Source of the DNA: a virus
Lineage: Duplodnaviria > Caudoviricetes
Reading direction: 5' to 3' (one strand)
Virus record (IMG/VR): IMGVR_UViG_3300048670_001593
Span: 14,718-78,717 of that record
DNA: 64,000 nt
Numbering within the stretch: position 1 is the first letter of the stretch; every line of letters starts with the position of its first letter. This document shows, one piece after another, positions 1,542 to 62,430 of the stretch. Below the pieces are notes generated by a model that was given only the letters and a program-made list of their open reading frames with translations, did not search any database and had not been told where the DNA came from. A program made the position numbers and the translations under genes.

Positions 1542-1554
1542 GGAATTGAAAAAA

Positions 1555-21925: not shown

Positions 21926-22167
21926 TGGAATATCATATCAAAACTGACTTCAACTGGTGGCTAAAATGGTTGGCCTGTTGCGTGACATTGATTGCCGCAG
22001 GGTTGACCAGTGCTGGGTTAGACCCGTATAATGTTTATTTGCTAAACTTAGGCGCTACACTATATCTGATATGGAGTATTCGCATAAAAGAATGGAGCCT
22101 GGTGGTCATTAACGCTGGGCTAATCGCCATTTATTGTGCAGGCACATTGTACAGAATCTTGAACTAA
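21925..22167 (+). CDS. Small membrane protein
   Basis: TAATG coupling with the upstream gene; 80 aa, three hydrophobic segments. Confidence 0.6.
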   Translation: MEYHIKTDFNWWLKWLACCVTLIAAGLTSAGLDPYNVYLLNLGATLYLIWSIRIKEWSLVVINAGLIAIYCAGTLYRILN

Positions 22168-22193
22168 ATCTGAGGCGAAGCGATCGTAATCAA

Positions 22194-39715: not shown

Positions 39716-39874
39716 ATGAGTAAACTTACAGATTTAATGAAGTCAGCATTGGATAAAAAACAATCAAGTGATCACGGCACAACTAAGGTAAACAAAAACA
39801 CCAAGGGAAAGGTCTCCGGCAGCCAGGTCAGCATCAACAAACCAGCAAAGAAATCTGCAGGTCGAGGTCGATGA
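39716..39874 (+). CDS. Small basic protein (52 aa), absent from the ORF track
   Basis: MSKLTDLMKSALDKKQ...KSAGRGR*; ATGA overlap with the epimerase. Confidence 0.55.
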   Translation: MSKLTDLMKSALDKKQSSDHGTTKVNKNTKGKVSGSQVSINKPAKKSAGRGR

Positions 39875-45679: not shown

Positions 45680-46107
45680 TAGGAACCGTCAGCGGAAATA
45701 AGCTGTTCTGCAATATATTCGGCCCAAAATTCTGAATTTTGCACAGATACCTGAATATTAAACTGACTGGGAGACTCAAACAGCTGATTGGTATCAGCAA
45801 ATCTACTCTCTGTTATAGTATCCATCCAGATCACATAGTCAGCCGCAAATTCATCACGCAACTGCTGTGTGGGTGCTACAAAATCACATATAACGAATTC
45901 TGATTCAGAAGTATCAGCCAGACTTTTCATGCGGGCTGCCTGCCTGAGACGACCAGCGTCAGTAAAGTCCCAATCGTCTGCCTGCTGTCTGATCTGATCA
46001 GCATTATACCAGTCTGCAGTTCGACCCAATTCAACAAATTTATTTTGTAATGCTTGTGCCAGGGTAGTCTTGCCACTGCCCGGCAATCCCATGATCAATA
46101 TTTTCAT
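45679..46107 (-). CDS. cysC: Adenylylsulfate (APS) kinase-like P-loop protein
   Basis: GLPGSGKTT, NADQIR..A.DWDF...GR.RQA, CDFVAP, FESP; 142 aa. Confidence 0.75.
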   Translation of the reverse strand: MKILIMGLPGSGKTTLAQALQNKFVELGRTADWYNADQIRQQADDWDFTDAGRLRQAARMKSLADTSESEFVICDFVAPTQQLRDEFAADYVIWMDTITESRFADTNQLFESPSQFNIQVSVQNSEFWAEYIAEQLISADGS

Positions 46108-47576
46108 GACATAACCTTTACATTATACAACTGCTCAAACCTGTCGGCATCTGCACGGTCATCCACCATGGGCTCACCTCGTATGTTCAGACTGGTATTC
46201 AATAACATGGGACAACCAGTCTGCGCATACCAGGATTCCAACAGTTGTCTGATGCCGCTGCCACAATTTTCAGACACTGTCTGCACTCGACTGGTACCAT
46301 CCACATGTATTATAGCAGGAAATTGCTCAGGATGCCGACATTTGGCTATTACCTGCATGTATGGGCTAGTGGCAAAACCCATTGGCATTTCAAAATAGTC
46401 GTTGGCGTGCTCTTGTAAAATCACCGGGGCAAATGGTCTGAACTTCTGCCGACGTTTGATTTCGTTAACTCTGTCTTTGATTTCAGAACCACGCGGGTCT
46501 GCCAACAGACTTCGATTACCCAGAGCTCTGGGCCCAAATTCTGCTCGACCACTAGCCACGCCCACAATCTGACGGGTCAATAGCTCATTTATCAGACCAT
46601 CAACAGGGTATGGACCAGGAATTTCTGTGCCCAGATAGGGATGTTGCCAGTTGATTCGTCCGCCGTACGCCAATGCTGCTGCACCCAGACTGCTGCCGCA
46701 ATCACCAGGGTTGGGCATGATCCAGATGTTGTCGAAATATTGACCTAACCCTGCGTTTGCTGAACAGTTCAGAGCAACCCCGCCCATGTAAACCAGATTT
46801 GTGCTCCATTTGAAGTCCCTGGCTCGAGACATCACACTGGCCAGACAAGTTTCCAGAGTCTGCTGGGCACTGGCTGCAATATCAAAGTCACTCATGTCTG
46901 GTCGATAATCATCAGCACCAGTATGAAGATTCCGTCGAAATTCCAACGTGTCCGAATTCTGAACGAAATCCGCTAGCATGCTGGGATCAGCAGTTCCATA
47001 GGCCGCCATGCCCATGAGAATGTATTCTTCGTCCAATGGCTTTAATCCTGCACGTTGAGTCATGGCCGAATAGAACAGCCCCAGACTGTGTGGATATTTC
47101 TGACCCCAGAGTTTGTTATATCGGGCTTGACCATCGACGTATTCTGCAGCCCAGATGGTTATGGTATCCCATTCACCAATGGCATCAATCACCACCACTG
47201 TGGCCCGATCGAATGGGCTGGTCTGAAATCCCGCAGCAGCGTGACTCAAATGATGCTGATAAGTCCTGACAGGGACTGAGATTTTGAATCCCAACTGGTC
47301 TGTTATGATTTTTTTGGTACTTAGTTTGCCCCATTCGATGCCTTGCCCGCTGTATAGTTGTCGCAGTTGTTTCAGCCAGGGATTTTCATAGTAGGCAATT
47401 GTGCCTATGGGCCCATGTGCCAACGCAGCCTCTGCTATGTCCTGACAGAGGTCGGCATCGTTTTTTTGTTTGCTGTATCTTTCACTGTGTGCTGCAAATA
47501 GTATGTCACCGGTGCTGCCATCAACTACTGCAGCACCTGCATCATGAAATCCAGCCGAGATTCCTAATATGTTCAT
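46104..47576 (-). CDS. Carbamoyltransferase (NodU/CmcH/TobZ family)
   Basis: GISAGFHD, HHLSHAA, DAIGE, MGMAAYG, GGVALNC, GDCG, EFGPRALGNRS, RQKFRPFAP, LLNTSLN. Confidence 0.93.
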   Translation of the reverse strand: MNILGISAGFHDAGAAVVDGSTGDILFAAHSERYSKQKNDADLCQDIAEAALAHGPIGTIAYYENPWLKQLRQLYSGQGIEWGKLSTKKIITDQLGFKISVPVRTYQHHLSHAAAGFQTSPFDRATVVVIDAIGEWDTITIWAAEYVDGQARYNKLWGQKYPHSLGLFYSAMTQRAGLKPLDEEYILMGMAAYGTADPSMLADFVQNSDTLEFRRNLHTGADDYRPDMSDFDIAASAQQTLETCLASVMSRARDFKWSTNLVYMGGVALNCSANAGLGQYFDNIWIMPNPGDCGSSLGAAALAYGGRINWQHPYLGTEIPGPYPVDGLINELLTRQIVGVASGRAEFGPRALGNRSLLADPRGSEIKDRVNEIKRRQKFRPFAPVILQEHANDYFEMPMGFATSPYMQVIAKCRHPEQFPAIIHVDGTSRVQTVSENCGSGIRQLLESWYAQTGCPMLLNTSLNIRGEPMVDDRADADRFEQLYNVKVMS

Positions 47577-48207
47577 ATACCTTATCAGCCACTAACTCAT
47601 GGCCCTTGTCTAAGAAATGCCCATTTGGCCCTTTGGGACACTTGGCAGCATCAGTCCATTCCACCATGCCACTGTGATCAAACCCAATAAAACAGTCTTT
47701 ATCAATTTCTTCAAAATATTTTTGCCAGAAAAACGTTGGACGTCGTCGATAATATTCATTTTCCAGCACATTCATCATAATGTATTTTATGTTTTTGTAT
47801 TTTAAAAAATTCTGCAGCAGAATAACCTGCTCCAGATATCTGACATGATAATACTGTCGGTTGTGATACTGATTAAAATATTTCACCAGGCCCTGGCGCC
47901 AGACTGATCCGTCCTGTTGAAATAAATTTCCGCTGTACCCGGGCCAGACACTATAATGTCCAACGTCATCCGCAAACTCCTGTCGACCCAACATGCTCCA
48001 GCCAATGACTACCAAGTCAATTTGATCAGACCGAGTTAGGAGGTATTCCAGAAGCCTACGAATTATGCTATCATTGCTGCTGGCCGGTTCACCAAGATTT
48101 ATTACTGCATAGCCGAGCTTTTCGCCCAGTCGATTGGGCCAGGACTTATTTAAATCAGGTAGTTCTTCCCCGTAGGTAAAACTATCACCAATGGCCAATA
48201 ATTTCAT
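47542..48207 (-). CDS. SGNH/GDSL-like protein
   Basis: AIGDSFTYG, SSNDSIIR, VIGWS...R, GHFLDKGH. Confidence 0.75.
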   Translation of the reverse strand: MKLLAIGDSFTYGEELPDLNKSWPNRLGEKLGYAVINLGEPASSNDSIIRRLLEYLLTRSDQIDLVVIGWSMLGRQEFADDVGHYSVWPGYSGNLFQQDGSVWRQGLVKYFNQYHNRQYYHVRYLEQVILLQNFLKYKNIKYIMMNVLENEYYRRRPTFFWQKYFEEIDKDCFIGFDHSGMVEWTDAAKCPKGPNGHFLDKGHELVADKVYEHIRNLGWIS

Positions 48208-48305
48208 TTGTAAATAAATGGATCTCGTTTACGAAGTTCTTTTAGTCTTTTTCTGTAACGAATTTCCAACATAACACGATCATAAATTTTTCGTAACCAA
48301 TTCAT
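48204..48305 (-). CDS. 33-aa basic peptide, absent from the ORF track
   Basis: MNWLRKIYDRVMLEIRYRKRLKELRKRDPFIYK*; fills the gap and its stop overlaps the next ATG (ATGA). Confidence 0.65.
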   Translation of the reverse strand: MNWLRKIYDRVMLEIRYRKRLKELRKRDPFIYK

Positions 48306-49101
48306 TGAATTTCTCCTGGATTAATTTGACGGCATCTGCATGTGCTGCCTCAAGCGGGTGTGTGGTGCCCATGGGGTATTTATTTTCTGTCGCCCAGTGG
48401 AAAAATCCTTTGGGTTCCTGAGTCAGACTAACCGACGTTGCTGGAAAGAAAAACCAACGATCCCAGTCAATCAGTTGATATAAATCAGATAGCCAGGAAT
48501 CCTGAGTCCTAATATAATTTTCATGTTGATAAAATGTATTACCGGCTGTCAGGAAAATGTAGGGAATCCCATTCAGTTTTAGATAGTCCTGCATGAAAAT
48601 AAATTCCCTAAAACTGGAATACATTTCATAATATTCACTGTCGCCCACATGCTTGTAAAATACTGATGCGAAATCCGCAACCCCAGTGCTTCTGGCAGTT
48701 AATATATTTTCCAACTGCTGATATTCGATACCTGAATTGGGAGTAAAATAACTATCAGAAATTTTCTTTAAGTCTGATTCAATGGTCCAGGGGTTTATGC
48801 TATACCAGGGACTATTTCGTTGACGTGTCTGATAATTAAATCTAAATTCGTATCTGGAAACAAAACTCCACATTATTAATACAGCGAATTTCTTTCCCTG
48901 CTGTTGTAGTTCCTGACATTTCCTCAGAGTCATTCTGGAAATGGCCGAATTGGCATTGCCTGGAAAGGCAGTTGATACATAATCCAGCCCAGCCAGTCTG
49001 GCCAGTTGGGCAGGGAACGTCTGCCCACTGGGAGATTGATCGTTTTGATCAGATAACTCTGACCCAAAGATCAGACTATCACCCCCGGCTACTAAAATCA
49101 T
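48280..49101 (-). CDS. SGNH/GDSL-like protein
   Basis: AGGDSLIFG, GNANSAISR, IMWSFVSR, THPLEAAH. Confidence 0.75.
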   Translation of the reverse strand: MILVAGGDSLIFGSELSDQNDQSPSGQTFPAQLARLAGLDYVSTAFPGNANSAISRMTLRKCQELQQQGKKFAVLIMWSFVSRYEFRFNYQTRQRNSPWYSINPWTIESDLKKISDSYFTPNSGIEYQQLENILTARSTGVADFASVFYKHVGDSEYYEMYSSFREFIFMQDYLKLNGIPYIFLTAGNTFYQHENYIRTQDSWLSDLYQLIDWDRWFFFPATSVSLTQEPKGFFHWATENKYPMGTTHPLEAAHADAVKLIQEKFNELVTKNL

Positions 49102-50233
49102 ATCCTGCCTTCATTGAATCAATCTGTTGCTGTTGATAATCATCATCTGACCAGCAATAGTCAAATTTACCATATGTTCCAATGACTTCTATTTGATAGA
49201 TATCCAGATATTTTCCCAATATTTTTCTAATTTCTATTGGATTGTCGGTACCAAAGCTTCTGATCAAATCAACCCGCCCAATGGGCAAATACCCCAGACT
49301 TAAATTAACGTCCGCAGGATCTCGATTATTATCCCTCAGCCATTGGCGGAACTGATCCTGTTCCTGATCATGCCATTTAAGACCTTGCCCATAGATGACA
49401 TCATTGCCCCATTCAACATCAAACTCGCCACTATAGTATTTGAGCTCAGTGATGGCCTCACAAATTGTGTCAGTCAGACTGGGGGCATGCTCGTCACGAA
49501 AGACTTCAAACAGAGTTTTTCCAATCTGTGTCCAATGCATATACACTCTGCCAAATTCTCGATCATATCCATTGGTCAAAAATAACTGTCTATGCTCGGA
49601 TTTCAGATCGTATCGTTGAGCTTGCAAAAATGTAGTGATTTGACTGGGCCGAACCCATTCTGGCAACATTACAGCTTTTCTCTGACTTAGAATTAAAGTC
49701 TCTAATTCATGACAAAGATTATTGAGCTGACGTATGGCATACTTGGTATTATAGTCAGCCAACTTATAATACTCACTAAGATTCCAAACTGTTCCTTGTA
49801 ATGTCTCAAAATGATTGTGTAATTGATTCATTACACCATGTTTGACTCTTAACCCTAGCGCACGCCATTGGCCATCACCAATGGGATATTCATTCCCAAA
49901 TCTTACCACATCTGGGCAAAACCATTCCTCAATTACATAGGACTCCAATCCGGCTGCTTGCCAGATTCCTGTCGCATTAAAATTGTTGATTTGAATAATG
50001 GTCTTGTTGAGTTCTTTGCAAAGATATTCTAAATTTCTGGCAGTGTTGGGAAATCCCATGAAGCAAAAATTTTTTTCCAATGGTCTACCAGACCGCAATA
50101 ATTCTTTAAGTGCAACGACCCAATCCCGAGCCAGTTGGTGATTGTCTGGTGTAATCCAGTAATCCCAGGTTTGTGACTTGTTGACGGGATTTCTTAAAGT
50201 GACTTTAACTGTCAATGGATTCGTACCACTCAT
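49079..50233 (-). CDS. Hypothetical protein embedded in the radical SAM operon
   Basis: 384 aa; LNQLHNHFE and LNNLCHELE His-containing helices; overlaps both neighbours. Confidence 0.7.
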   Translation of the reverse strand: MSGTNPLTVKVTLRNPVNKSQTWDYWITPDNHQLARDWVVALKELLRSGRPLEKNFCFMGFPNTARNLEYLCKELNKTIIQINNFNATGIWQAAGLESYVIEEWFCPDVVRFGNEYPIGDGQWRALGLRVKHGVMNQLHNHFETLQGTVWNLSEYYKLADYNTKYAIRQLNNLCHELETLILSQRKAVMLPEWVRPSQITTFLQAQRYDLKSEHRQLFLTNGYDREFGRVYMHWTQIGKTLFEVFRDEHAPSLTDTICEAITELKYYSGEFDVEWGNDVIYGQGLKWHDQEQDQFRQWLRDNNRDPADVNLSLGYLPIGRVDLIRSFGTDNPIEIRKILGKYLDIYQIEVIGTYGKFDYCWSDDDYQQQQIDSMKAGYDFSSRG

Positions 50234-51509
50234 GAATTTCGGGCCTTGTACTCAAAATGTCTGCTAATGTATATGTATCCTTGCGAATGGTTTCCAATTT
50301 TAAAATTCTAGCCTTGCCTTTACGTAGACCCGCCTCAAACTCATTGGGCCATTGCTCGGCAAATGTGGGTCGAGTTTTGAGTTGAATTAGTACATCCCGT
50401 AATGCTCCCTGGGTCTCGAGCAGTAATTCATCTATCCAAGTATGCAAGATATCTCGAGGCAGAGACAGAGGTGAAAGCAGGATATCTGGACCAAAGCTAA
50501 ACACCACTTTGGCCAGGATATCCACACCCAGTTCATCAGCCAACTTTTGAATATTCGCTATTTCAAACATACCCGGCAGGGTAAGTGTGAAATCAATTCT
50601 CATCTGACGACGATGCGTAGCGACTCGAACACCAGCCTTAAAGTTTTCAAGCCACGTTGCATAATCGAGACCTGTTCGTATATACTCTCCAACTCGGCCC
50701 GTACCATCGATGCTTGCACATATTTGCCAGTCGCGTAGCCCAGCCAAAATATCATTATAGAGATTGATGCCGCGATAATTGATGCGACTAAGGTTTGTGT
50801 TGTATCTAGCGTAAACATTTTTACCATCTCCCAGTTCAACAATGCGCCGCATATAGCGCCAGTGCTGTTCGTACATCAGAGGCTCACCGCCTACCCAATA
50901 TACCTCCTCAACTTGATGGTTCTCAACTGCTTGAGCGAACTCTTGTTCAATCTGTGTTTCTTGAAACTGTTCGATTTGCTTTTTTATTTCTGGTCGTTGC
51001 CAATTGTTTTTTGGATCTAACCAGTTGACCATGTCATGCTGCCGTTGTTCGGTTTCCCAGGCACTGCTCAACATGTCGCCGCACGTACGGCATTTGAAGT
51101 TGCAGAGATTACTGAAACGATAATCCCAGCTGACAGGTTGCATGGTGGTATACCCCGATTCATCTGTGGTTTCCCATATGCTATTGTACTTATGTCCGAA
51201 CAACTGATTAAAATAGCTGCGGTATACGTCGGTATTTAGTAGCTTATTATTGCAGACTTCACACTCAGGCAATGTTTCTCCGGCCATCATGCGACGTCGG
51301 ACCGATCTCATATGCTCTGAATTCCAGTGTTGTTCCAGAGTCAAGGGAATATACTGACCAGTGCCGGCTTGGGTATCAATATACTGTTGAAAATTTTGTG
51401 CTGGTTCACGTGACGCGCAGCACATGCGCCGTTCTGTCTGCGGACTCAGATAGGTGTGCGTCCAGGGGGCCATGCATAGAGTTTCGGGTTTATCTTTGGG
51501 AATTGTCAT
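50205..51509 (-). CDS. Radical SAM/SPASM protein
   Basis: CMAPW...CC...CEVC; CNFKCRTC; VGGEPL. Confidence 0.88.
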   Translation of the reverse strand: MTIPKDKPETLCMAPWTHTYLSPQTERRMCCASREPAQNFQQYIDTQAGTGQYIPLTLEQHWNSEHMRSVRRRMMAGETLPECEVCNNKLLNTDVYRSYFNQLFGHKYNSIWETTDESGYTTMQPVSWDYRFSNLCNFKCRTCGDMLSSAWETEQRQHDMVNWLDPKNNWQRPEIKKQIEQFQETQIEQEFAQAVENHQVEEVYWVGGEPLMYEQHWRYMRRIVELGDGKNVYARYNTNLSRINYRGINLYNDILAGLRDWQICASIDGTGRVGEYIRTGLDYATWLENFKAGVRVATHRRQMRIDFTLTLPGMFEIANIQKLADELGVDILAKVVFSFGPDILLSPLSLPRDILHTWIDELLLETQGALRDVLIQLKTRPTFAEQWPNEFEAGLRKGKARILKLETIRKDTYTLADILSTRPEIHEWYESIDS

Positions 51510-51516
51510 TTTTACT

Positions 51517-52587
51517 TCAAAAGTCCACGTGCGGCCAATTTGGAAAGACCTGATGGAATGTCAATTTACTTGCTGAATCTTCTAATTTCATTGCCTCCAA
51601 AAACTTCTGAGACAAAATGTTATCTGTATTGCTTGTCGCAATCATGGTTTCGATTTCTTTCCTCAACGGATGGTCAACTGCATGTTGTTCCCAATGAGTT
51701 TTCTGTGATTGGGTCAAAGTATCTAGTGAAAGATAGGGAATATTTCTTACTGGGGAGAATATAAATCTTATGTCTTTATCTTCAGGCAATTCTTTTATCC
51801 ATTCAATAAACTCATTGAAACCCCATACACTAACGCATGAGACCACATAGTTAATTACAATATATCTACTAATAGTGATCCATTTTTTTGAAATGTCGGA
51901 CACTTGTTTCCATTGTAGTGGCCTTCTCTGATATTCAAACCATTTTCCTGCTCCATCGATGCTCAAAGTAACCATTATCTGTTTAAATTGTTGCATTATA
52001 TCAATTAACTCATCATCCAGAATGCTGGCATTGGTGTTAAGCCCAATAGTAATTTCACCAGATCTGCCAGATTCAATTAATTGACGCAATATCTTCTTCG
52101 TTAATGGCGAATGTGTAGGTTCACCACCTATCAATTTTAACATTCGAAGATTTGGATATTTAGAAAAATCCACTTCATGTTGAAAATGTTCTTGCATGTT
52201 TTCAACATAAAAAAATTTATTATACTTTTTTGCCCACATATTTCTACTGCTAGAAGCATATTTGCACATTATACATTGTGCATTGCACGTAGTACCTAAT
52301 TGTATGTCAATAGATTCAATACTGTCAACCGGTAATCCAACATCGAAAAATTTAGATTCGCTCACAAGATCTAAAAAATCATTTCTGGGACTGTGTAAAT
52401 TATTTTTTTCTAAATTAAAACAGGTCGAACAGGCCTTTGGTTGTGTGTTCTGCAAGAAATCTGCTTTTACTGTATCAAGACTGTCCTGATGCCCGTAATT
52501 AATGAAACAGCATGGAGTTACCTTTCCTGATACCTGATGAAATTCACTGACCCAAGGCGCGGGACATAAGTTGTATAAATTTTCCAT
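51517..52587 (-). CDS. Radical SAM/SPASM protein
   Basis: CPAPW...PCC...CSTC; CNAQCIMC; IGGEP. Confidence 0.85.
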   Translation of the reverse strand: MENLYNLCPAPWVSEFHQVSGKVTPCCFINYGHQDSLDTVKADFLQNTQPKACSTCFNLEKNNLHSPRNDFLDLVSESKFFDVGLPVDSIESIDIQLGTTCNAQCIMCKYASSSRNMWAKKYNKFFYVENMQEHFQHEVDFSKYPNLRMLKLIGGEPTHSPLTKKILRQLIESGRSGEITIGLNTNASILDDELIDIMQQFKQIMVTLSIDGAGKWFEYQRRPLQWKQVSDISKKWITISRYIVINYVVSCVSVWGFNEFIEWIKELPEDKDIRFIFSPVRNIPYLSLDTLTQSQKTHWEQHAVDHPLRKEIETMIATSNTDNILSQKFLEAMKLEDSASKLTFHQVFPNWPHVDF

Positions 52588-53783
52588 TAATACCCCATGG
52601 CTCTGGCAATTTCTGGGTGTGTTTCAGCGAAGCTTTGCTCTCTATACTGATCAGCTAATTGCATACGGTTAACAAATTCCCGACCGTCACTGCCCTGACC
52701 ATTGCGAATGAACTGAACAATGCGCTCAATTTCGGCACGATATCGGGTGTGAAACTTGTGATTGGTCAATCGTTCAATCACCAACTGTTGTGTTGCGGGT
52801 GTCATGCGACCAATATTCATATGCCAGGGGTCGTGCAGCATATTAAAATATACATGGTCAAATGTTTGTGTATCAGTCCAGTCACAAATTTCTGGCAGAT
52901 AATAAACATTCTGCACATTCATAGTAGTACAGAGTTGTGTGGTAATTTTCTTGCTGCGCATGGCCGAAAACTTATCTAAATTTTCCTGCACTTCTGACCA
53001 ATCAGCACCATAACGTTCCAGCTCGAATCTCTCGCCAACGTTGTCTATGCTGAAAGCAATTTCCACACGATTGAACTTGTTCCATAACTCAGCAGCGTCA
53101 GGAAACACAGTGCCATTGGTGTTGTAATGAATATCAATGTGCTGACTGTGCCCGTGTTTGGCAGCATATTCCAACAAATCAAAATGCTGTTGTATCAGGA
53201 AAGGCTCTCCACCAGTGAACTCAAAATATCTGATGTTGGGCAACAGACTTTTTAAATTTTCCCAGAAATCAGGACTTTCTCTGGGCCAAGCGCCCTGCTG
53301 CAAAAACTTATAAGCCAGATGATCTTTTCTGTTCACAAGACCTGGCACATAATCAATCTCTTCCTGAACCCATTTGCTGCTGCTCCAACTGCCGCAAATT
53401 CGGCATTTGAGATTGCAAATATTGCCCAATTTAAGATCAATAAACCACAGTTGATCAGGTCTGGTGTTGGACCAATCCACCTGATCGTAATACTCTTTGA
53501 GTCTGACACGGCTGTTCATTCGCTTGCTGGTGCGGCCGGCTGCTTCCTCTTCCCAGCAACGACTACAAGTTTTGGGTCTTTGCCCCAGCAAAAATTCTTG
53601 TCTGAGATTTTGCATGTACTCGCTCTGATAAATCTCTTCCAGATTATTCTGTTTGAGCAAATACTTTTCACCATTGGGTTTGGTTATTTCATCTTTGGCC
53701 AAACAGCAGGGACGAACTGTTCCAACAGGACTAGTTTCAATACTAATCCAGGGCAATATACAAATACTATCAGGTAATGTCAT
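52587..53783 (-). CDS. Radical SAM/SPASM protein
   Basis: CILPW...PCC...CSRC; CNLKCRIC; TGGEPF. Confidence 0.88.
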   Translation of the reverse strand: MTLPDSICILPWISIETSPVGTVRPCCLAKDEITKPNGEKYLLKQNNLEEIYQSEYMQNLRQEFLLGQRPKTCSRCWEEEAAGRTSKRMNSRVRLKEYYDQVDWSNTRPDQLWFIDLKLGNICNLKCRICGSWSSSKWVQEEIDYVPGLVNRKDHLAYKFLQQGAWPRESPDFWENLKSLLPNIRYFEFTGGEPFLIQQHFDLLEYAAKHGHSQHIDIHYNTNGTVFPDAAELWNKFNRVEIAFSIDNVGERFELERYGADWSEVQENLDKFSAMRSKKITTQLCTTMNVQNVYYLPEICDWTDTQTFDHVYFNMLHDPWHMNIGRMTPATQQLVIERLTNHKFHTRYRAEIERIVQFIRNGQGSDGREFVNRMQLADQYREQSFAETHPEIARAMGY

Positions 53784-55116
53784 GTGGCAATACACTCAGT
53801 TCAGTAAATACTTGCCAGAAATTTTCCTTTCTGACTTGATCCAATTTGGCAGTCTCTGCAACAAATTTATCCCAGTGTTGGCTGTTGTCCTTGGCCATCA
53901 TAAAGTTGATGGCGCTGGCAAATCCGTTGGTGGCGCGCTCCAGTTTATCCTGTGGGCGCAACCATTCCAGATGTTTGCGATACGCTGGTTCAACAACTTC
54001 TCGTTTGAACTGTTCTGGCAATATGTCAATTCTGTACCATTCAGGCCCCTGACAGATGTTGACATTAAAATCCTTGGCCTGGATGAACCCCAACTCAGTC
54101 CATTCACGGTGGAAGTCCAGGACATGTAATACATTGGCTGTGCTAACTGTAGCACTGATATAAAAATCCACGTGAGGAACTTCCGTTAACATGCGTTCAC
54201 GGTTTTCCACCGTTTGCTGCCAATTAGTACCCTTGCGTAGGATTTCTGAACGACTTCCACTAGCATCCAGACTGGCACCAACATTGACAGTCTTGAAATG
54301 CTTCCAGTACTCAAACACGTGTTTATTTTTATATCTAAGCTCACTAAAATTGGTATTGTACATGAGCCTGACATCGGTCTTACCCAACTCGATCAATTTT
54401 TCCAGTAACAGGTAATGCTCTTTCATAATCAGAGGCTCACCACCAGCAAAATAAACTTGTTCCAAATGCGGAATGTGTGGTTGCATTTGCTCCCAGATGT
54501 CCATCTCATGACGACCAGCATACTCTACTGTGGTCATTTCTCTGCCCAACACATCCGGATTTCTATCATAAAGTTTAATGTGATCACTATACCAGTTACT
54601 ACTGAATATTGGTCCGCAGGTCCTGCAACGGAAATTACAAAGGTTACTGAATCTGACATCCCAGTACCTGATATTGAATTCTGGATGCTCACCATCTTCA
54701 CGAGTTTGATCTACTTCTGCAATATGATGTCCATAGTTTCTGTTGGCATCATAGCGCATGCTAAAAAATCCACTTTCTTCTTGCTCATAGCATTTATTGC
54801 ACTGCTTGCTGGGGTGATCATTTAGCATGTTTTTACGCAACTGTTTATAGGCAGACTGGTTCCAAACAGTCACCATGTCGTCTTTGCGTAGATCCCCCAG
54901 GGGGTGCCAGTAATCAGCCAGACAGCAGGGGTAAACACGGCCATCAGGATAGGCATGCATGTGAACCCAAGGTAGCATACAGAATGATTTACTTTCTAAT
55001 AGTAATTCTTTCTGTCGATCAGACAAGGTGTCTAGATCAGAAAAGTATGGTGCTCTGGCCGTGTAACTGTAACCTTTGTTATAAAAGGTTTCGATATCAT
55101 TTTTTTCAGTGCTCAT
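53770..55116 (-). CDS. Radical SAM/SPASM protein
   Basis: CMLPW...PCC...CNKC; CNFRCRTC; AGGEPL. Confidence 0.88.
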   Translation of the reverse strand: MSTEKNDIETFYNKGYSYTARAPYFSDLDTLSDRQKELLLESKSFCMLPWVHMHAYPDGRVYPCCLADYWHPLGDLRKDDMVTVWNQSAYKQLRKNMLNDHPSKQCNKCYEQEESGFFSMRYDANRNYGHHIAEVDQTREDGEHPEFNIRYWDVRFSNLCNFRCRTCGPIFSSNWYSDHIKLYDRNPDVLGREMTTVEYAGRHEMDIWEQMQPHIPHLEQVYFAGGEPLIMKEHYLLLEKLIELGKTDVRLMYNTNFSELRYKNKHVFEYWKHFKTVNVGASLDASGSRSEILRKGTNWQQTVENRERMLTEVPHVDFYISATVSTANVLHVLDFHREWTELGFIQAKDFNVNICQGPEWYRIDILPEQFKREVVEPAYRKHLEWLRPQDKLERATNGFASAINFMMAKDNSQHWDKFVAETAKLDQVRKENFWQVFTELSVLPHDIT

Positions 55117-56531
55117 AGATTATTGTACCAGTCAGATAAATTTGGGAATGTCGTAGTAAAATCTTTGTCACGTCTTTGATCAAATTGAGTGAAAAAACTT
55201 TTGAAATCAGCCTGTAACTTTTGCTGTTCTATCAGATCAGTTTGGTTATCATAAGTTGAGTTATCAAAAGAAACTGAATTTAAATTTTCCTTACCTGCAG
55301 TCAACTCTTTGTGTGGATCTTTAATATTTTCCAAGTATTTATGAAATCTACGAACTTGATCCACACCATAATCATTGAAAAATTCTTCAATATCTGGTTG
55401 GGCCAAAAAAGATTCTATCTCATCCATGTATTTTTTTCTCAACTCATAAGGCAATACCACAATGCTCTGAAATGTTGGAAATCTTACTGGATTAATTGTA
55501 ACACATAATCGTTCAGGTGGCAACTTTTTCTTTTTTTCCAGCACCCAATGTAGAAATTCACCAAACCCATCAATTGCGGGCACACTGGGGGTAGTACAAA
55601 TCCCAACTCGACTGATCGATGGGTGAGCCAGTACTCTATCAAAATTTTCTTCCCATTGCTGCCAGGACAGGCCATCACGAACATATTCTGCTTTGCTGCC
55701 TATGGATTCAGTACTGGTCCAGACCTCAATGTGCAGGTTGATCTGGTCACACAAGTCAAGAAATCTGGTCAAAGTGTCAGTGTCATAGGCCAGATTTGTG
55801 GTCATATGTATACTACAAGAACTCTTGTTGGGGTTGTCACGAAGCCATTCCAACAGTTTCCAGGTATGCCCACTCATCATGGGTTCCCCGCCAGTAATTC
55901 TCAAAATTTTCAACGATTTGTGTAAGTCGGTTTCCCACCACTTAAAAAATGCATCGGCATAGGGATTTTCATCACCAAACTTGTAGACTGATACTTCATC
56001 TGAAGTCCCCACGTAATGATTCCTAAGATCACTGGGTAAATTCACGTATGGTCCATTTCTACGAACATCACGTGCCCAGGTGCTACTAATGGCTGGACAA
56101 CAGTAAGCACATGCCAGCTGACAAGTTCTATCAAAAGCCACCTCCAGATAATCCAGATCATAATCTGCATCTGGGTCGCCAGCGAATGCAGCGTCCAATC
56201 GCTCAACACTGGACATCTGGCTGAAGATCACTCGATCAGATGTATTATCGGGAGCTGCTTCCTCCATGGCCCAACAAAATTGACAATTCAAGGGCTTCTG
56301 TCCCTGCTGCATCATTCTTCGTTGTTGTTTTTTTATCTGGGTATTATGTATTGCACTGGGATTGACTTTGATTTCTTCCAAGTCAATGGCATGCGGAGGA
56401 TTATGATGGCAACTGGTGGTCCAACCAGCATGAAAATACATTGAAGAATTATACCATTTGGCGCCACAAAAACTGGGACTTTTTGTATCCAATATCTTTA
56501 ATTTAAAAGTTTTAGGATCCAGATCGCTCAT
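55113..56531 (-). CDS. Radical SAM protein (CxAKW subfamily)
   Basis: CGAKW...SCHH...CQFCW; CQLACAYC; TGGEPM. Confidence 0.88.
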   Translation of the reverse strand: MSDLDPKTFKLKILDTKSPSFCGAKWYNSSMYFHAGWTTSCHHNPPHAIDLEEIKVNPSAIHNTQIKKQQRRMMQQGQKPLNCQFCWAMEEAAPDNTSDRVIFSQMSSVERLDAAFAGDPDADYDLDYLEVAFDRTCQLACAYCCPAISSTWARDVRRNGPYVNLPSDLRNHYVGTSDEVSVYKFGDENPYADAFFKWWETDLHKSLKILRITGGEPMMSGHTWKLLEWLRDNPNKSSCSIHMTTNLAYDTDTLTRFLDLCDQINLHIEVWTSTESIGSKAEYVRDGLSWQQWEENFDRVLAHPSISRVGICTTPSVPAIDGFGEFLHWVLEKKKKLPPERLCVTINPVRFPTFQSIVVLPYELRKKYMDEIESFLAQPDIEEFFNDYGVDQVRRFHKYLENIKDPHKELTAGKENLNSVSFDNSTYDNQTDLIEQQKLQADFKSFFTQFDQRRDKDFTTTFPNLSDWYNNL

Positions 56532-57880
56532 AGTGTTGTGTACCAGTCAGCCAGTTGTGGAAATGTTGTTTTAAAATTCTTGTCACGACGCTGATCATAT
56601 TGTTGATGAAACTGTTTGAAATCGTTATGTAATGCTGGCAAGTCAAACGCATCACTGTGTGGAGTTTTAACAATATCCAAATAATCAATCAGGCGTTGCA
56701 CATGATTTTTTTCATGCTCATGAAGCATGACATGATCATTAAATCTATTTAACCAATCCACTAGTCTCTGTCGATGTTTCATACGAATGTCGTCAGGCAG
56801 CACCAATGGACTCTGAAAACTGGGAAAACGCAGAATGTTTAATGTAAAGTTGGGATTATTTCGACCCCATTGACTTTTCCACTCCATCAACATGGTTAGA
56901 AATTCTGGCAAACTTTCCAGACACAGTGCATTAATTGTACACATGACATGCAGGCCGCGCAGACGGCCGCTGCGCATCAGGAACCACATGTTATCTGTCC
57001 ACTGCTGCCAAGCCAGCCCATCGCGAATGTATTCTGCATGAGCACCCAGACTTTCATTGCTGGTGTACAGATCAAGTTCAATGCCCTGAGTACTATCCAA
57101 TAATTCTTCCAGGACCGATTGATCAAAACACAGATTACTGTTGATGGCCAGACGGGTCTTGCTGGCGCCGCGATTATTTTTGTACCATTCCAATAGTCGT
57201 TTGGTGTACCCGCTCATGAGTGGCTCACCGCCGGTGATTCTGAGCTCAGTCAGTGTCTGGTGGAGGTCAGTTTCCCACCATTTGAAGAATGCTTCCACAT
57301 ACGGATTAGTTTCACCGAGTTTATAAAGTTGAGCACTATTATGCTCATGAGTGAAATGGTTACGACCATCGCTGACCAGATTGACGTATGCTCCATTTCG
57401 GTGAACATCACGTACCCAGCTAGTGCTGAAAGCAGGATTACAATAGCTGCAGGCCAACTGGCAAGTTCTATCAAATGCGATTTCCAAAGTTTTAAGATTA
57501 ATATCCGAATTCCAATCAGTATTGTATGCAAGATCCAGGTCCTCGTCTTTGTATATGACTGTTTTATATACTCTATCGCTTATGGCATCCACACCCATGT
57601 CTTCAATTTTCCAGCAATATTCGCAACCTGCAGGTCGGTCTCCCTGTTGCATCTGATGACGCTCTTGCTTTTTGCGCAGAGTGTTATGCAGAGCTCTGGG
57701 GTTGGCCTCTACCTCTTGGACTGAAACTTTGTGTGGTAATGGGTGATGGCAACTAGTGGTCATACCCGACCCCAGCCAGATAGTAGCATTATACCACTTG
57801 GCTGCACAAAAACTTTCAGACTTGATGTCGATTACTCGGCGTTTATATTCTAAATCGGTTTCGTTATGTATTTTCGGCAT
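56528..57880 (-). CDS. Radical SAM protein (CxAKW subfamily)
   Basis: CAAKW...SCHH...CEYCW; CQLACSYC; TGGEPL. Confidence 0.88.
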   Translation of the reverse strand: MPKIHNETDLEYKRRVIDIKSESFCAAKWYNATIWLGSGMTTSCHHPLPHKVSVQEVEANPRALHNTLRKKQERHQMQQGDRPAGCEYCWKIEDMGVDAISDRVYKTVIYKDEDLDLAYNTDWNSDINLKTLEIAFDRTCQLACSYCNPAFSTSWVRDVHRNGAYVNLVSDGRNHFTHEHNSAQLYKLGETNPYVEAFFKWWETDLHQTLTELRITGGEPLMSGYTKRLLEWYKNNRGASKTRLAINSNLCFDQSVLEELLDSTQGIELDLYTSNESLGAHAEYIRDGLAWQQWTDNMWFLMRSGRLRGLHVMCTINALCLESLPEFLTMLMEWKSQWGRNNPNFTLNILRFPSFQSPLVLPDDIRMKHRQRLVDWLNRFNDHVMLHEHEKNHVQRLIDYLDIVKTPHSDAFDLPALHNDFKQFHQQYDQRRDKNFKTTFPQLADWYTTL

Positions 57881-59255
57881 AATATCGGCACTCTTGCCAG
57901 AATTCTTTCATTGTGGGGAAGCTGCTAATAAAACTAAATCCTCGACGCTTGTCGTATTCATTAAAAAATCTATAAAAATCTGCACGTTGTTGCTTTATAT
58001 ATTCAGGATCTAGATCCCGCCCATTTTTCATCCAGGCAATGTTTCTGCGCATGCGCTGAACTTCATAATCTTTGAATCCATCAAATCTATCAACACCTTC
58101 GGGCAGTTGATGGGATTCCATCCAATCAGCAACATCTTCTAATATTCTAACATAACTAGCTGGCAAAATTTGCAGACTCTGCCAGGCAGGCTGTCTGAGC
58201 AGGGGTGTATCAAACCAGACTCGCTGATAAGTCAGACTGTGTTTTTTACGTTGTTCCAGAATGATTTCCAGTAACTTTCGCAGACCCAGAATATTGAGGT
58301 TACTCATGGTAATGATGTAGGTCAGACTGTTGCGATATGGAACTCTGGTTAAAAATTCTTCGGTATTATGCAGACATTTGTCCAGATTGAGACCACCGCG
58401 TATGTACTCGCTCTGCTCTTTGATACCCGAATCCAAACTTACATACTGCATAAAGTGTTCAATTTTTGTTCCCTGACACAGTTGCTCAACCTTGTGCATG
58501 TATTTTTCAAACAATGCATCATCCACGCTAAAATTGCTGGTGACATCAACATGCAGATCACTCTTGGGTAATGCCAAGATATAATCGAACACTCGGTGGG
58601 TGTTTTTGTCCATGAGTGGTTCGCCACCAGTCATGCGAAAATGCTTGAGGTGGGGATACAGTTCTGGCCACCAGCGCCAGAAGGCTTCCACATATGGGTT
58701 TTCTTCACGAACCGGAATGGGTTTACGTCGCCCCTGAAAATGTATGGGATCATTGTGTGGTGTGGTGGTGGGATATGCTCCCCAGCGATCAATTTCTTTG
58801 CCCCATTCGGTGCTGAATTGTGGGCTGCAGTAACTACATGCCAGATTGCATCCGTGACTGAAATTGACCTCTACATAACTGGGAATAGCATCCTGATCCC
58901 AGGAACCATGGGCTATTTCTTCATAGTGTTCTGCTGCCCAGGGCTCACCGCTGCGATAGTGTCTGTCGCTAAGTTGGCCGTTGTCCTCGGCTGACCAACA
59001 ATAGGCACACTCCGGCGGACGTTGCTGCTCCAGCATCAACTTACGCTGTGCTTTCTTGTGCGCAGTGTTATGCAATGCACCGGGATTGAACGTTAGTGGC
59101 GCAGCATCAATTTCATGCAAGGGAGGATGATAGCAACTATTGGTTAACCCAGTGGGCAAATGCAAACTGACCTGCTGCCATTTGGCCAGGCACAGTGCGT
59201 GACCCAATTTCTCACGCATCTCCTCGGCAGTGCTCATAAACTTGCTTTTACTCAC
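57864..59255 (-). CDS. Radical SAM protein (CxAKW subfamily)
   Basis: CLAKW...SCYH...CAYCW; CNLACSYC; TGGEPL. Confidence 0.88.
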   Translation of the reverse strand: MSKSKFMSTAEEMREKLGHALCLAKWQQVSLHLPTGLTNSCYHPPLHEIDAAPLTFNPGALHNTAHKKAQRKLMLEQQRPPECAYCWSAEDNGQLSDRHYRSGEPWAAEHYEEIAHGSWDQDAIPSYVEVNFSHGCNLACSYCSPQFSTEWGKEIDRWGAYPTTTPHNDPIHFQGRRKPIPVREENPYVEAFWRWWPELYPHLKHFRMTGGEPLMDKNTHRVFDYILALPKSDLHVDVTSNFSVDDALFEKYMHKVEQLCQGTKIEHFMQYVSLDSGIKEQSEYIRGGLNLDKCLHNTEEFLTRVPYRNSLTYIITMSNLNILGLRKLLEIILEQRKKHSLTYQRVWFDTPLLRQPAWQSLQILPASYVRILEDVADWMESHQLPEGVDRFDGFKDYEVQRMRRNIAWMKNGRDLDPEYIKQQRADFYRFFNEYDKRRGFSFISSFPTMKEFWQECRYYAENT

Positions 59256-60144
59256 GAATCATGGGGCCTTTGTTCTGAAAATTGCTCCGGTAATGATGCT
59301 TGAAAAATGCACTGGCGTCGGGATCCATGTCGACAATTTTCAACCCCAATCTCTGACGTAGTTCATCGCCCACAGCAGTGCAATGATCAGGCTCGTGATC
59401 TTTGTAATTTTGCCACAGTTCAGACAATGCATCAAACCACTGTACCTGCCGGTAATCCCAGTCCTGTAGCATGGTCAGTTGTGTGCCCAGTCTGGCACCA
59501 TAGATGGCCCAGAAGCCATTTTCCACATCTGCACCCACTGTCTGCCAGATGCAAAGATTATCATAATTTCTACTGACAATACGGTCTTTGAATTGTTCAA
59601 TATTGGGCCGGGTGCCACGATCCAGACACATTTTGACACCCTCGCGGAATCCAGCGCGCCAGGCCTGGAAAGGGGTGGCATTGGGATAGGTCGTACTGTA
59701 ACAATCGTTCATGGCCCAGTAGTTGGGGTAAAAGCAAAACTCCACATCATTGGCCGCTGACCCATCGCTGGCTTCGTGAGTCTTCATATTGTGTACAAAG
59801 TCTTTGGTCCAGCAGCTCATGCCACCATTACCATATTGCAGTCCATTAATAATGTTTCTGGCCTTCCAGCGAAACACACAATCCCGATTGGTTGTATCTA
59901 GCTTCAACTGCAGATTAAAAAATTCTGGATCTGGTAAATTGTCACCGTCAATCAGCACAAAGCGATCGGTATCGCTGGCATCAGCAGCGGCTTTGTGTGC
60001 TGCATCTGACCCTTTGACCCCATCCACACGCTTGGCCCAGGGCACCATGTTCTGAATTTTAATCCAGAACTCTTCCTTCTTGGGTTCATCGTATGTGAGA
60101 AAAATACAATCTAAATCTGCAACATCAACGATTTCTACGCTCAT
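59248..60144 (-). CDS. GT-A-like glycosyltransferase
   Basis: DCIFLTYDEP, FVLIDGDN (DxD), YGNGG, AWRAGFRE.VK. Confidence 0.6.
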   Translation of the reverse strand: MSVEIVDVADLDCIFLTYDEPKKEEFWIKIQNMVPWAKRVDGVKGSDAAHKAAADASDTDRFVLIDGDNLPDPEFFNLQLKLDTTNRDCVFRWKARNIINGLQYGNGGMSCWTKDFVHNMKTHEASDGSAANDVEFCFYPNYWAMNDCYSTTYPNATPFQAWRAGFREGVKMCLDRGTRPNIEQFKDRIVSRNYDNLCIWQTVGADVENGFWAIYGARLGTQLTMLQDWDYRQVQWFDALSELWQNYKDHEPDHCTAVGDELRQRLGLKIVDMDPDASAFFKHHYRSNFQNKGPMIRE

Positions 60145-60484
60145 AATATTCCGTCTCTAAATAGCTATCTTCTACAACAATTCCAGCATGATCTTTTACT
60201 ACTTTAACACCCTTGTTGCTGCGAGTCAAAGCAAAATGATGAAAATATACAGGTTCGACTCGACAAATTTTTCCATCAACTACTCGCATGCAACTCCAAT
60301 CATGTGTCACATACATCTCTCTGCTGATGTTTATCCAATTATCAGTGTCAGGAAATCCACTGCCCGAAAATCCTGTGACCCAGCCATCTGTATCATAATA
60401 CGCACGGTATTCTTCAACCGCCGGTATCGCTGATATAGCCGACAATGCCTGCAAAAATTCAGACTCACCGGGTAGCATGAACAA
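60125..60484 (-). CDS. Hypothetical protein
   Basis: 119 aa overlapping both neighbours. Confidence 0.55.
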   Translation of the reverse strand: MFMLPGESEFLQALSAISAIPAVEEYRAYYDTDGWVTGFSGSGFPDTDNWINISREMYVTHDWSCMRVVDGKICRVEPVYFHHFALTRSNKGVKVVKDHAGIVVEDSYLETEYYERRNR

Positions 60485-61283
60485 ACCCCTTCTCGTAATA
60501 ATGTACTGGGTAATACTGATTGCGATTGTTGATTCTTACTATGTTGGCCTGCCACTCAACATTTGCATGATCAGTCACTGCCTGGGTTTCATTCCAGCCC
60601 TGAATTTGTGGTTTCAGATGAACAAAATTAAAAAAATCCAGGGTGGGGATGGTACACGTGTTGATCCCGACAATCTTTGTTGCTACTGCAAATGCAAGGT
60701 CTGTGGTGGGTGGTTCATTGATCAGCGCCAGATGATTTTTTACTGTATCCCAACCAGCATAAACATCACGCACCGTTCTAAAAAAGTCTGCACTCGTCTG
60801 ACTATATCTAAAATAATACATGCCAGTGTATACGTCTGGCAAATCATTTTCTTTAAAAATCTTTCTGTAGGGACTCGATGTAATAGTCTCTGACTGGAGA
60901 TTTTTGCAATGCAAACTAAAGCAGATGTCTCTGAATCTGAGCCCATCTAACCAGTGCGTGATATCCCGAGTGAATAGCAAATCACTTTCAAGTTTAATGG
61001 TTTCCTTAAAGGGAGTCAGATAGAATGCTTGCCACTCATTGCTCATCTTCCAGTGTTCATTTTTGGCATAATCAGTGGGAAATTCAATGATATAATCAAA
61101 AATCTCACGATGCTGATCAGTGATGAATTTGGCAGTGTTGGCATCTACCAGTATGGCATACTGATTTTGTTTTTGTGTTGCCTTGACGTTCAGTGCTTGC
61201 TGATAAGCCAACTCCAGATAATCAGTGATGTCATTATTTTGTGCAATGGTCAAGAACCCAAATTGACTTTTAAATTCACGCAT
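60465..61283 (-). CDS. GT-A-like (nucleotide-diphospho-sugar transferase) protein
   Basis: GFLTIA, ETIKLESD (DxD-like), VYTGMYYF; paralogous to 61276..62052. Confidence 0.55.
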   Translation of the reverse strand: MREFKSQFGFLTIAQNNDITDYLELAYQQALNVKATQKQNQYAILVDANTAKFITDQHREIFDYIIEFPTDYAKNEHWKMSNEWQAFYLTPFKETIKLESDLLFTRDITHWLDGLRFRDICFSLHCKNLQSETITSSPYRKIFKENDLPDVYTGMYYFRYSQTSADFFRTVRDVYAGWDTVKNHLALINEPPTTDLAFAVATKIVGINTCTIPTLDFFNFVHLKPQIQGWNETQAVTDHANVEWQANIVRINNRNQYYPVHYYEKGFVHATR

Positions 61284-62052
61284 GGGTCGCTGCCTCGATT
61301 AATTGTTCACAGGAATCAGACAGTAACCAGGCTTTACTCATTAAATGAATACTTTGCTTTGGTAATACCAGGGCCTGTCCTGAGGTTTTCAGGTAAAACT
61401 TGGAATCTTTTAATTCCAGACTATCAATGGGACCAGGCACGCTGACAATGGGCCAGGGCAAATAATTTTCCTGATTGGGACTATACCCATTTATGATATT
61501 GTCAGCAATGGTAAATGCATAATCATTTCTGAAATTTCTGGCTTCAATATTGTAGAGATCTCTGTAATATTGATAATTGCGCTCAATTACACCCACCAGA
61601 TCAAATAACATTTGAGTCTTGGGAGTTTTATTAAACACAATCACAGTTGCCCAGAGTGTGTCCAGGCTATATTGTCCCATCTGATTGCTGTGTTGACTGC
61701 AGACATAATTATTTGTTTTTGTGATCTGATAATCTGACACCACATCTAAAATTTTCAGTAGATTGTCATCAAAAACAAAGTAATCGCTGTCTATCAGAAT
61801 AGTCTGATCGTAGGGGCTCAACTCATAGGCCAGATATCTGCCACCATTGTGCCACGCTTCAAAATTCCCTGAATCAATGTTATATCTTTTATTGGCAAAA
61901 TCCTGACCCGTGACAATGGTCACTGGCAGTTTAAGATAATGTTCTGCAAGAGTCGTCGCTCTGGCGGCAATTGTGGCGTAATCTATATAACCAGTGTTGT
62001 TGGCAAAGATCAATACGCCTTTAGATTTTTCTAACACGTCGCAGTTCTTCAT
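61276..62052 (-). CDS. GT-A-like (nucleotide-diphospho-sugar transferase) protein
   Basis: GVLIFA, SPYDQTILIDSDY (DxD), WATVIVF, RNDYAFTIA. Confidence 0.65.
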   Translation of the reverse strand: MKNCDVLEKSKGVLIFANNTGYIDYATIAARATTLAEHYLKLPVTIVTGQDFANKRYNIDSGNFEAWHNGGRYLAYELSPYDQTILIDSDYFVFDDNLLKILDVVSDYQITKTNNYVCSQHSNQMGQYSLDTLWATVIVFNKTPKTQMLFDLVGVIERNYQYYRDLYNIEARNFRNDYAFTIADNIINGYSPNQENYLPWPIVSVPGPIDSLELKDSKFYLKTSGQALVLPKQSIHLMSKAWLLSDSCEQLIEAATHA

Positions 62053-62338: not shown

Positions 62339-62370
62339 ACTTGTAATTATCTACGAAAGTGTGGTGTCAA

Positions 62371-62403
62371 AATAAAAGCACTGACTTAGTCAGTGCTTTT
62401 ATT
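62371..62403. terminator. Rho-independent terminator (symmetric, possibly bidirectional)
   Basis: AATAAAAGCACTGAC-TTA-GTCAGTGCTTTTATT, a perfect 15-bp inverted repeat. Confidence 0.85.
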
Positions 62404-62430
62404 ATACAAACTCGAACGATTAAAATCAAA

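Follow-up and report, generated by a model that had tools for sequence, protein, structure and literature searches.

Seven tandem radical SAM genes in an uncultured giant phage: a conserved enzyme set with a possible role in tailoring carbohydrate

Introduction

What would a giant phage do with seven radical S-adenosylmethionine (SAM) enzymes encoded head to tail behind its fibre genes? The question is raised by the 64,000-nucleotide stretch of DNA analyzed here ("the window"), which spans bases 14718-78717 of a viral contig in IMG/VR (IMGVR_UViG_3300048670_001593, 78.7 kb), and whose source contig has a CheckV completeness of 22%, implying a genome of roughly 350 kb. On the minus strand of the window, at 50205-59255, lie seven head-to-tail, translationally packed open reading frames (ORFs), all encoding radical SAM proteins and referred to below as A1 to A7. 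We find this array to be a real feature, and an enlarged instance of a catalogued family without assigned function. In a reading that we place just on the probable side of even, its functional-looking enzymes would tailor carbohydrate together with the phage's own GT-A-type glycosyltransferases (GTs), the acceptor possibly being a virion fibre.

The array encodes seven intact members of one family

The seven genes, in the direction of transcription, are as follows (scores are for NF033640, the NCBIfam model N_Twi_rSAM, twitch domain-containing radical SAM protein).

A1, 57864..59255, minus strand: N_Twi radical SAM, subtype I (CxAKW..SCYH), core member; 286 bits
A2, 56528..57880, minus strand: N_Twi radical SAM, subtype I, core member; 285 bits
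A3, 55113..56531, minus strand: subtype I accessory paralogue of the A2 lineage; 270 bits
A4, 53770..55116, minus strand: N_Twi radical SAM, subtype II (CxxPW..CC), core member; 400 bits, the best match of the seven
A5, 52587..53795, minus strand: N_Twi radical SAM, subtype II, core member; 348 bits
A6, 51517..52587, minus strand: rare subtype II accessory cassette of 356 amino acids, related to A5; 187-191 bits
A7, 50205..51509, minus strand: N_Twi radical SAM, subtype II, core member; 291 bits

Family membership and intactness are direct observations. All seven proteins exceed the curated cut-off of 170 bits (range 187-400 bits) with model positions of about 1-398 covered, and each carries one CxxxCxxC and one GGEP motif, both invariant in orthologues. 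Four N-terminal cysteines, aligned and invariant in position, precede the radical SAM core in all seven, and Pfam SPASM matches the N-terminus of A4 (residues 46-110), A5 and A7. Two subtypes are apparent, A1-A3 with CxAKW...SC(H/Y)H and A4-A7 with CxxPW...CC. The four auxiliary and three core cysteines are invariant in each core orthogroup (57-67 distinct orthologues per orthogroup); in the 65 distinct orthologues of A1, all seven are accompanied by an invariant C456. Such additional invariant cysteines differ between orthogroups (C456 in A1, C289 in A5, C264 in A7; none in A2 or A4). Conserved C-terminal cysteine clusters were absent from array proteins and their orthologues, the auxiliary cysteines being the four at the N-terminus. 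Computed with longest-ORF starts, the junctions from A1 to A7 consist of overlaps of 17, 4, 4, 26 and 1 nt and one 7-nt gap, which leaves no space for a peptide gene within the array. A preliminary description of this DNA, made from the letters alone, had reported seven consecutive radical SAM genes with both motifs, a division into four CxxPW..CC and three CxAKW..SC(H/Y)H proteins, and no gaps for precursor peptides, and all three observations are borne out.

The family itself is large, with 7,620 representatives (50% identity clusters) at E<=1e-30 for a profile of nine window paralogues, and A4 has more than 6,700 homologues. The NF033640 entry gives no function and no tested member, and our literature searches found no paper naming it, nor any on characterized N-terminal-twitch enzymes.

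Five core enzymes in fixed order and two accessory cassettes

Pairwise identity among A1-A7 is 18-44%, which indicates old paralogues rather than recent duplicates. Consistent with this, a quick maximum-likelihood tree of 70 sequences resolves A1, A2 (with A3), A4, A5 (with A6) and A7 as separate, well-supported clades, each of the five mixing phage and bacterial rows. A3, used as query against viral contigs, retrieved 516 relatives, from which 80 loci were kept for comparison; gene order across these is retained at 45-78% amino-acid identity, and within the array reads A1, A2, (A3), A4, A5, (A6), A7, parentheses denoting optional genes. Among the 62 loci with both boundaries the order A1-A2-A4-A5-A7 is never broken, and the number of radical SAM genes is five in 34, six in 21, seven in five and eight in two.

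The two optional members have narrower distributions. A3, which is 44% identical to A2 and sister to the A2 clade, is restricted to a small subclade and present in only about seven of the 80 loci, and A6 has only 16 homologues at E<=1e-10, the nearest being 90% and 80% identical; it occupies the same slot in phages L088 and L090 and is absent from L001, the closest relative of the window. Relative to L001, the ratio of nonsynonymous to synonymous substitution rates (dN/dS) is 0.03-0.10 for A1, A2, A4, A5 and A7 (A1 0.037, A2 0.028, A7 0.095), which indicates strong purifying selection on these genes. By sequence comparison, A1, A2, A4, A5 and A7 are an ancient core of fixed order, and A3 and A6 are accessory cassettes.

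These comparisons bear on the simplest explanation of the locus, that the genes are redundant or decaying duplicates without distinct roles. That explanation is suggested only by the presence of seven tandem paralogues, and is scarcely credible given their low identity, their separation into conserved orthogroups, dN/dS values of 0.03-0.10, cluster ligands that are all intact, and the additional invariant cysteines that differ between orthogroups. The preliminary description had supposed a multi-enzyme set, had proposed synteny in related phages as a check, and had named degeneration of the genes as a sign to the contrary. Synteny is found in the fixed core order across 62 loci; the idea of a set gains from deep paralogy, separate orthogroups, purifying selection and the fusions of neighbours described below; and the ligand cysteines and substitution ratios give no sign of degeneration.

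Five complete or near-complete relatives of 320-364 kb (one with terminal repeats) encode 7-9 family members each, and the DNA polymerase is nearest to those of the jumbo myoviruses Phosso, Atu_ph07 and GAP32 (42-51% identity). Comparison of the array with cultured phages by megablast gave no match, and tblastn gave only matches of 23-25% identity, in Vibrio phages K566/K567, Ralstonia phage RsoM2USA and a marine virus; by these searches, no cultured phage has the array.

Neighbouring genes suggest a link of the array to sugar metabolism

The following genes make up the rest of the block or adjoin it.

u258, 61276..62052, minus strand: u272 paralogue (hhalign probability 99.2%, E 2e-19) with an invariant D88-x-D90
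u272, 60465..61283, minus strand: GT8-like (glycogenin-like) protein, a weak assignment
u298, 59248..60144, minus strand: candidate GT-A/nucleotidyltransferase fold directly upstream of A1, with an invariant D66-G-D68-N
d384, 49079..50233, minus strand: directly downstream of A7; predicted cyclophilin-like beta-barrel split by a four-helix insertion
Carbamoyltransferase (NodU/CmcH-type), 46104..47576, minus strand: part of an optional cassette; Pfam Carbam_trans_N (E 1e-39) and Carbam_trans_C (E 1e-51)
big941, 41886..44711, minus strand: soluble protein of 941 amino acids closing the block, without a Pfam match
NAD-dependent sugar epimerase/dehydratase and DegT-type aminotransferase, 39871..41920, plus strand: convergent with the block; Pfam E 7e-49 and 8e-82

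The conserved order across loci runs, upstream of the array, from a tail-fibre chaperone domain through u313, u105, u258, u272, (u119) and u298, and, downstream, from d384 through (SGNH), (carbamoyltransferase), (kinase) and (dCMP deaminase) to big941. Linkage of the array to candidate glycosyltransferase genes is thus a direct observation. The best-conserved gene of the block is u298 (71% mean column identity), whose AF2 model (pLDDT 81) has GT-A/nucleotidyltransferase folds as all of its top 50 VIA matches (Z 5.0-6.6, root-mean-square deviation 3.4-6, 113-222 residues); Foldseek reached E 0.2, with A64R of chlorovirus PBCV-1 among weak matches. Over profile positions 4-113, the DxD-bearing half, the u272 orthologue profile matched 18 glycogenin sequences, with E 1e-3 at best. 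Residues 713-907 of big941 align with the u298 family (hhalign probability 97%, E 1.8e-11) with the DxD motif replaced, such that this C-terminal domain may be a non-catalytic or altered copy. None of u298, u272 and u258 has a Pfam or PHROG match; PHROGs matched no non-radical-SAM gene of the module, and profiles of u298, d384 and u258 gave only chance-level rows against PDB sequences. For d384, which is found in nearly all loci without belonging to a detectable sequence family, the AF2 model (pLDDT 85) resembles cyclophilins (VIA Z 7-8.7; atlas rows Pro_isomerase and Cyclophil_like2), and Foldseek found nothing clear.

Pfam further supports two SGNH/DUF6071 proteins, an APS-kinase-like P-loop protein and a dCMP deaminase in the block. 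The preliminary description had set the array between GT-A genes and SGNH, carbamoyltransferase and APS kinase genes; Pfam secures the latter three, and the upstream candidate GT-A genes are visible only to fold modelling and profile searches. The epimerase/dehydratase and DegT pair adjoins big941 whether or not a locus has the carbamoyltransferase.

Prediction gave no transmembrane segment for any module protein, and the chemistry of the module would therefore be cytoplasmic rather than take place on a lipid carrier. The gene repertoire also invites a reading in which the same sugar chemistry has another destination, either a diffusible amino-sugar or aminoglycoside-like molecule, or remodelling of the host envelope, for example as a block to superinfection. 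Aminoglycoside clusters resemble the module in their DegT, dehydratase, TobZ/NodU-type carbamoyltransferase, kinase and twitch-type radical SAM genes, the last exemplified by BtrN. Published interpretations of other phages lend themselves to either version: GT8 and lipopolysaccharide (LPS) genes in a phage host-recognition cluster were read as host-surface modification (PMC7029224), and a radical SAM/aminotransferase trio of a cyanophage was taken to make an antibiotic (PMC12801897). Against these stand the absence from the module of any exporter, flippase, polymerase, lipid-carrier transferase or membrane protein of any kind, and a position behind the fibre genes that is kept across about 60 loci. 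We accordingly regard another destination as quite unlikely.

Natural fusions and bacterial clusters

Natural fusions, both between family members and with glycosyltransferase domains, are observed directly. Of the 150 top family representatives, about 45 have two or three N_Twi units, which were typed by comparison with the window proteins. The fused radical SAM pairs include A1+A2 (P0137), A4+A5 (P0138, P0142 and phage locus L088) and A5+A7 (P0141), all of them array neighbours in array order. Two further fusions join the family to glycosyltransferases: P0189 combines a u298-family domain bearing an intact DxD with an A1-type enzyme (probability 98.5%, E 1.5e-15), and P0174 an A2-type enzyme with a GT2 domain (PDB glycosyltransferase matches at E 2.6e-6; Pfam GT2 on record). 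On L118, the metagenome contig that encodes P0174, nine radical SAM genes are interleaved with four GT2 genes.

The family also recurs in Bdellovibrionota. An initial genome scan placed it in three metagenome-assembled genomes of this phylum, and a phylum-wide search found it above the cut-off in 79 of 301 sampled genomes (26%), often in multiple, clustered copies. Within about 25 kb of one chromosome (G032) lie genes of the A7, A5, A2 (two copies), A1 and A4 types. The cluster of G257 includes a full-length u298 homologue (34% identity, E 7e-44), three Pfam GT2 genes and an FAD amine-oxidase-like gene, and further clusters contain UDP-glucose dehydrogenase with GT2 and an AsnB-like amidotransferase, GT4, DegT, or an APH kinase with an SGNH-TPR protein. 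Bacterial orthologues are 45-49% identical to A2, and 48% to A7.

In a quick tree, Bdellovibrionota A2-type genes (L113, from G032, and L081) nest within the phage A2 clade, a hint that genes may have passed, in either direction, between these phages and predatory bacteria. Separately, G008 encodes a 1,611-amino-acid protein (L084:6116-10951) with an N-terminal A1-type N_Twi unit, adjoining a GT4 gene; its C-terminal ~1,100 residues showed no similarity to module proteins, no Pfam and no atlas match.

The radical SAM-glycosyltransferase fusions, the GT2-interleaved bacterial clusters and the conserved linkage to GT-A-like and nucleoside diphosphate (NDP)-sugar genes together favour a glycan target. 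The three targets offered at the outset, a glycan, virion proteins or DNA, consequently separate, the first being clearly favoured and the other two weaker.

Peptide and protein substrates

Several points weigh against sugar tailoring. The sugar substrate is deduced from gene context and fusions, in a family without an assayed member, and u298, u272 and u258 are only weakly assigned as glycosyltransferases (Z 5-6.6; E 1e-3; no Pfam match). The closest solved sequence relatives of the radical SAM core are peptide- or protein-modifying SPASM enzymes (8VPO, a cyclopropyl synthase, 1e-10; anSME, 1.6e-6), the modelled cyclophilin-like fold of d384 is possibly peptide-binding, and one family member (P0202) fuses a partial subtilisin-like domain to an A1-type enzyme. 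The neighbours of some bacterial clusters, moreover, are not sugar genes but ABC transporters or menaquinone genes.

The relatives, the d384 barrel and the subtilisin fusion, together with the position of the array directly behind fibre genes, instead suit protein maturation, in which the enzymes, much as anSME and maturases of ribosomal peptides do, would directly modify the fibre-like neighbour u313, the tail fibre, or the small u105 or u119 by cross-linking, epimerization or oxidation, with glycosyltransferases decorating the same protein. This is the main rival to sugar tailoring, though in our judgement an unlikely one. No peptide gene lies within the array, and the N-terminus of its proteins is a twitch domain, not a recognition element of the kind found with peptides that are made on ribosomes and modified afterwards (RiPPs). 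Invariance in u105, one of the possible protein targets, is limited to four residues, and none of these or its other conserved positions is a cysteine. The bacterial clusters and fusions examined likewise point to glycosyltransferases and not to precursor peptides. Furthermore, the sole conserved micro-protein nearby follows the carbamoyltransferase rather than the array, as set out next.

33-amino-acid micro-ORF, 48204..48305, minus strand: MNWLRK...RKRDPFIYK; overlaps two successive SGNH genes, the first at its end and the second at its start

This micro-ORF lies 1.9 kb downstream of the array, and over 44 distinct sequences the 17 residues at its C-terminus barely vary, despite many synonymous codon changes. 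It is present in all 37 loci that have the carbamoyltransferase and absent from all eight that have the full array and lack the carbamoyltransferase. This strict co-occurrence assigns it to the optional carbamoyltransferase/SGNH cassette. A separate proposal, that the DPFIYK micro-protein is an obligatory radical SAM substrate, is ruled out by those eight array loci. An hmmscan of the 33-residue peptide at E<=10 returned no DUF5989 row, short queries being easily lost to filters.

Other radical SAM genes and nucleotide metabolism in the window

Outside the array, the window holds the following candidates.

B1, 435-1541, plus strand: N_Twi radical SAM, above the NF033640 cut-off
B2, 1459-3000, plus strand: N_Twi radical SAM, above the NF033640 cut-off
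B3, 6344-8422, plus strand: 692-amino-acid protein in which a SPASM/twitch-like domain at the N-terminus is fused to a radical SAM core and a methyltransferase of the class I SAM type
QueE-like ORF, 22134-23042, plus strand: match to solved QueE proteins confined to residues 19-59 (E 1.4e-7)

B1 and B2 (435-3000, plus strand) constitute a second N_Twi tandem pair, one of each subtype, far from the array and upstream of the DNA polymerase gene. B3 adjoins the family B DNA polymerase, and B3-related units are inserted as cassettes in some arrays. The ORF at 22134-23042 had no Pfam match at E<=0.001 and is presumably either a very divergent QueE or QueE-like only in part. The preliminary count of 11 radical SAM genes in the window therefore holds for the seven of the array and for B1, B2 and B3, and for the eleventh extends to an N-terminal match.

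Genes of this kind raise the alternative of DNA or nucleotide hypermodification, in which the array enzymes would act on nucleotides or DNA-bound sugars in concert with the deazaguanine, dCMP deaminase and thymidylate synthase genes of the window. The dCMP deaminase, P-loop kinase and carbamoyltransferase do lie in the same block, ThyA and QueE-like genes occur elsewhere in the window, and the array proteins bear a weak similarity to viperin-type nucleotide radical SAM enzymes. The candidate partner genes are optional, however: the deaminase, kinase and carbamoyltransferase are missing from eight loci in which the array is complete, which renders the case weak. In addition, the array scores only 15-33 bits on the viperin-type model NF038283 and so does not reach its cut-off of 180 bits, and no DNA-modification genes were present in the bacterial clusters examined. 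We consider this alternative very unlikely.

Shuffled sequence yields promoter- and terminator-like sites at least as often as does the interval 44.1-64 kb. Only one intergenic gap in the block is sizeable, the 92 nt that separate u313 from u105 (62339-62430); it contains a promoter-like site on the minus strand (TTGATT-17-TATAAT) upstream of u105, the only notable one in 44.1-64 kb.

Discussion

From the context, conservation and fusions described above we infer a sugar substrate, a reaction type and an acceptor for the array. In the favoured reading, that of sugar tailoring, each enzyme would reductively cleave SAM at its CxxxCxxC cluster to yield a 5'-deoxyadenosyl radical, which would in turn abstract a hydrogen atom from one specific sugar carbon. 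A fully cysteine-ligated auxiliary cluster in the N-terminal twitch may serve as electron donor or acceptor, as in BtrN and anSME; a role in electron relay fits the weak match of N-terminal profile positions to the C-terminal twitch domain of BtrN (E 0.0045). Possible products include keto, epimerized or deoxygenated sugars, or sugars linked through C-C or C-X bonds, and the enzymes could act either on nucleotide-sugars or on a sugar after its transfer. The adjacent dehydratase/epimerase and DegT aminotransferase would supply the sugars, and u258, u272, u298 and big941 would transfer them. In this phage the optional cassette might further carbamoylate or acylate them, and A3 and A6 might extend the chemistry. 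The weakest step concerns the acceptor, for which the neighbouring Thr/Asn-rich fibre proteins are candidates; virion proteins are a reasonable guess in view of the place that the array keeps behind fibre genes.

A bolder extension, which we offer as speculation and think improbable as it stands, is that pairs of N-terminal-twitch radical SAM and GT-A enzymes represent an unrecognized route of glycan building, in which transferred sugars are rewritten in place or joined by non-glycosidic C-C or ether bonds, giving an enzyme-resistant sugar coat on the fibres of hundreds of giant phages and in predatory Bdellovibrionota.

The fusion evidence, the expansion in Bdellovibrionota with its GT2-interleaved clusters, and the co-occurrence test that parts the micro-protein from the array are new here. 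Sets of several NF033640 enzymes recur in giant phages that are abundant and uncultured, as well as in a quarter of the sampled Bdellovibrionota genomes, and the fusions (u298+A1, A2-type+GT2, A1+A2, A4+A5 and A5+A7) provide concrete enzyme pairings and a first substrate class, which makes the problem assayable. The array is accordingly of interest mainly as a well-posed target for enzymology. If its product does decorate virion fibres, then it would also bear on host recognition and on the resistance of phages to degradation in aquatic systems.

Comparison with known systems

The preliminary description knew of no characterized equivalent of the array. This holds for function; the family had already been catalogued as NF033640, and cassettes had been mentioned in two papers. 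In pelagimyophages, a host-recognition cluster combines radical SAM cassettes, GT8 genes and LPS genes (PMC7029224), and a T4-like environmental genome carries 12 radical SAM genes (PMC5332604). These phages resemble the present group in being large, T4-like and aquatic, with variable radical SAM cassettes near tail-fibre genes and GT8/LPS-type genes; the likeness is drawn from the published descriptions, in which the genes were mentioned in passing without family assignment, core set or function.

With NF033640 itself, A1-A7, B1 and B2 share a full-length score, the N-terminal four-cysteine twitch-like domain, CxxxCxxC and GGEP, whereas the fixed five-member set, accessory cassettes and glycosyltransferase fusions seen here are not part of the family definition. 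The maturases of the anSME/RS-SPASM type (e.g., PDB 8VPO) are the closest solved relatives of the core and likewise have auxiliary Fe-S clusters. Their SPASM domain is, however, C-terminal, with about seven cysteines and two auxiliary clusters, in place of the four N-terminal cysteines found here, and they act on a peptide or protein encoded nearby, whereas no precursor gene accompanies the array.

Virion glycosylation by virus-encoded GT-A enzymes is exemplified by A64R of chlorovirus PBCV-1 and by mycobacteriophages. As proposed for the array locus, the transferases there are soluble, virus-encoded, of GT-A fold and cytoplasmic; we know of no radical SAM enzymes in those systems. For the present phage group, glycosylated virions are a prediction.

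BtrN, the 2-deoxy-scyllo-inosamine dehydrogenase of the butirosin pathway, differs from the array proteins in that its twitch is C-terminal rather than N-terminal, its core is not detectably close to theirs, and it acts as one enzyme where the phage loci have 5-8 paralogues. Together with, by extension, other radical SAM enzymes that tailor aminoglycosides, it nevertheless offers a likeness in architecture, a radical SAM core with one auxiliary four-cysteine twitch (the cluster content of the phage proteins being predicted from their cysteines), and a likeness in setting, since in both systems the radical SAM chemistry stands in an amino-sugar context with a DegT-type aminotransferase.

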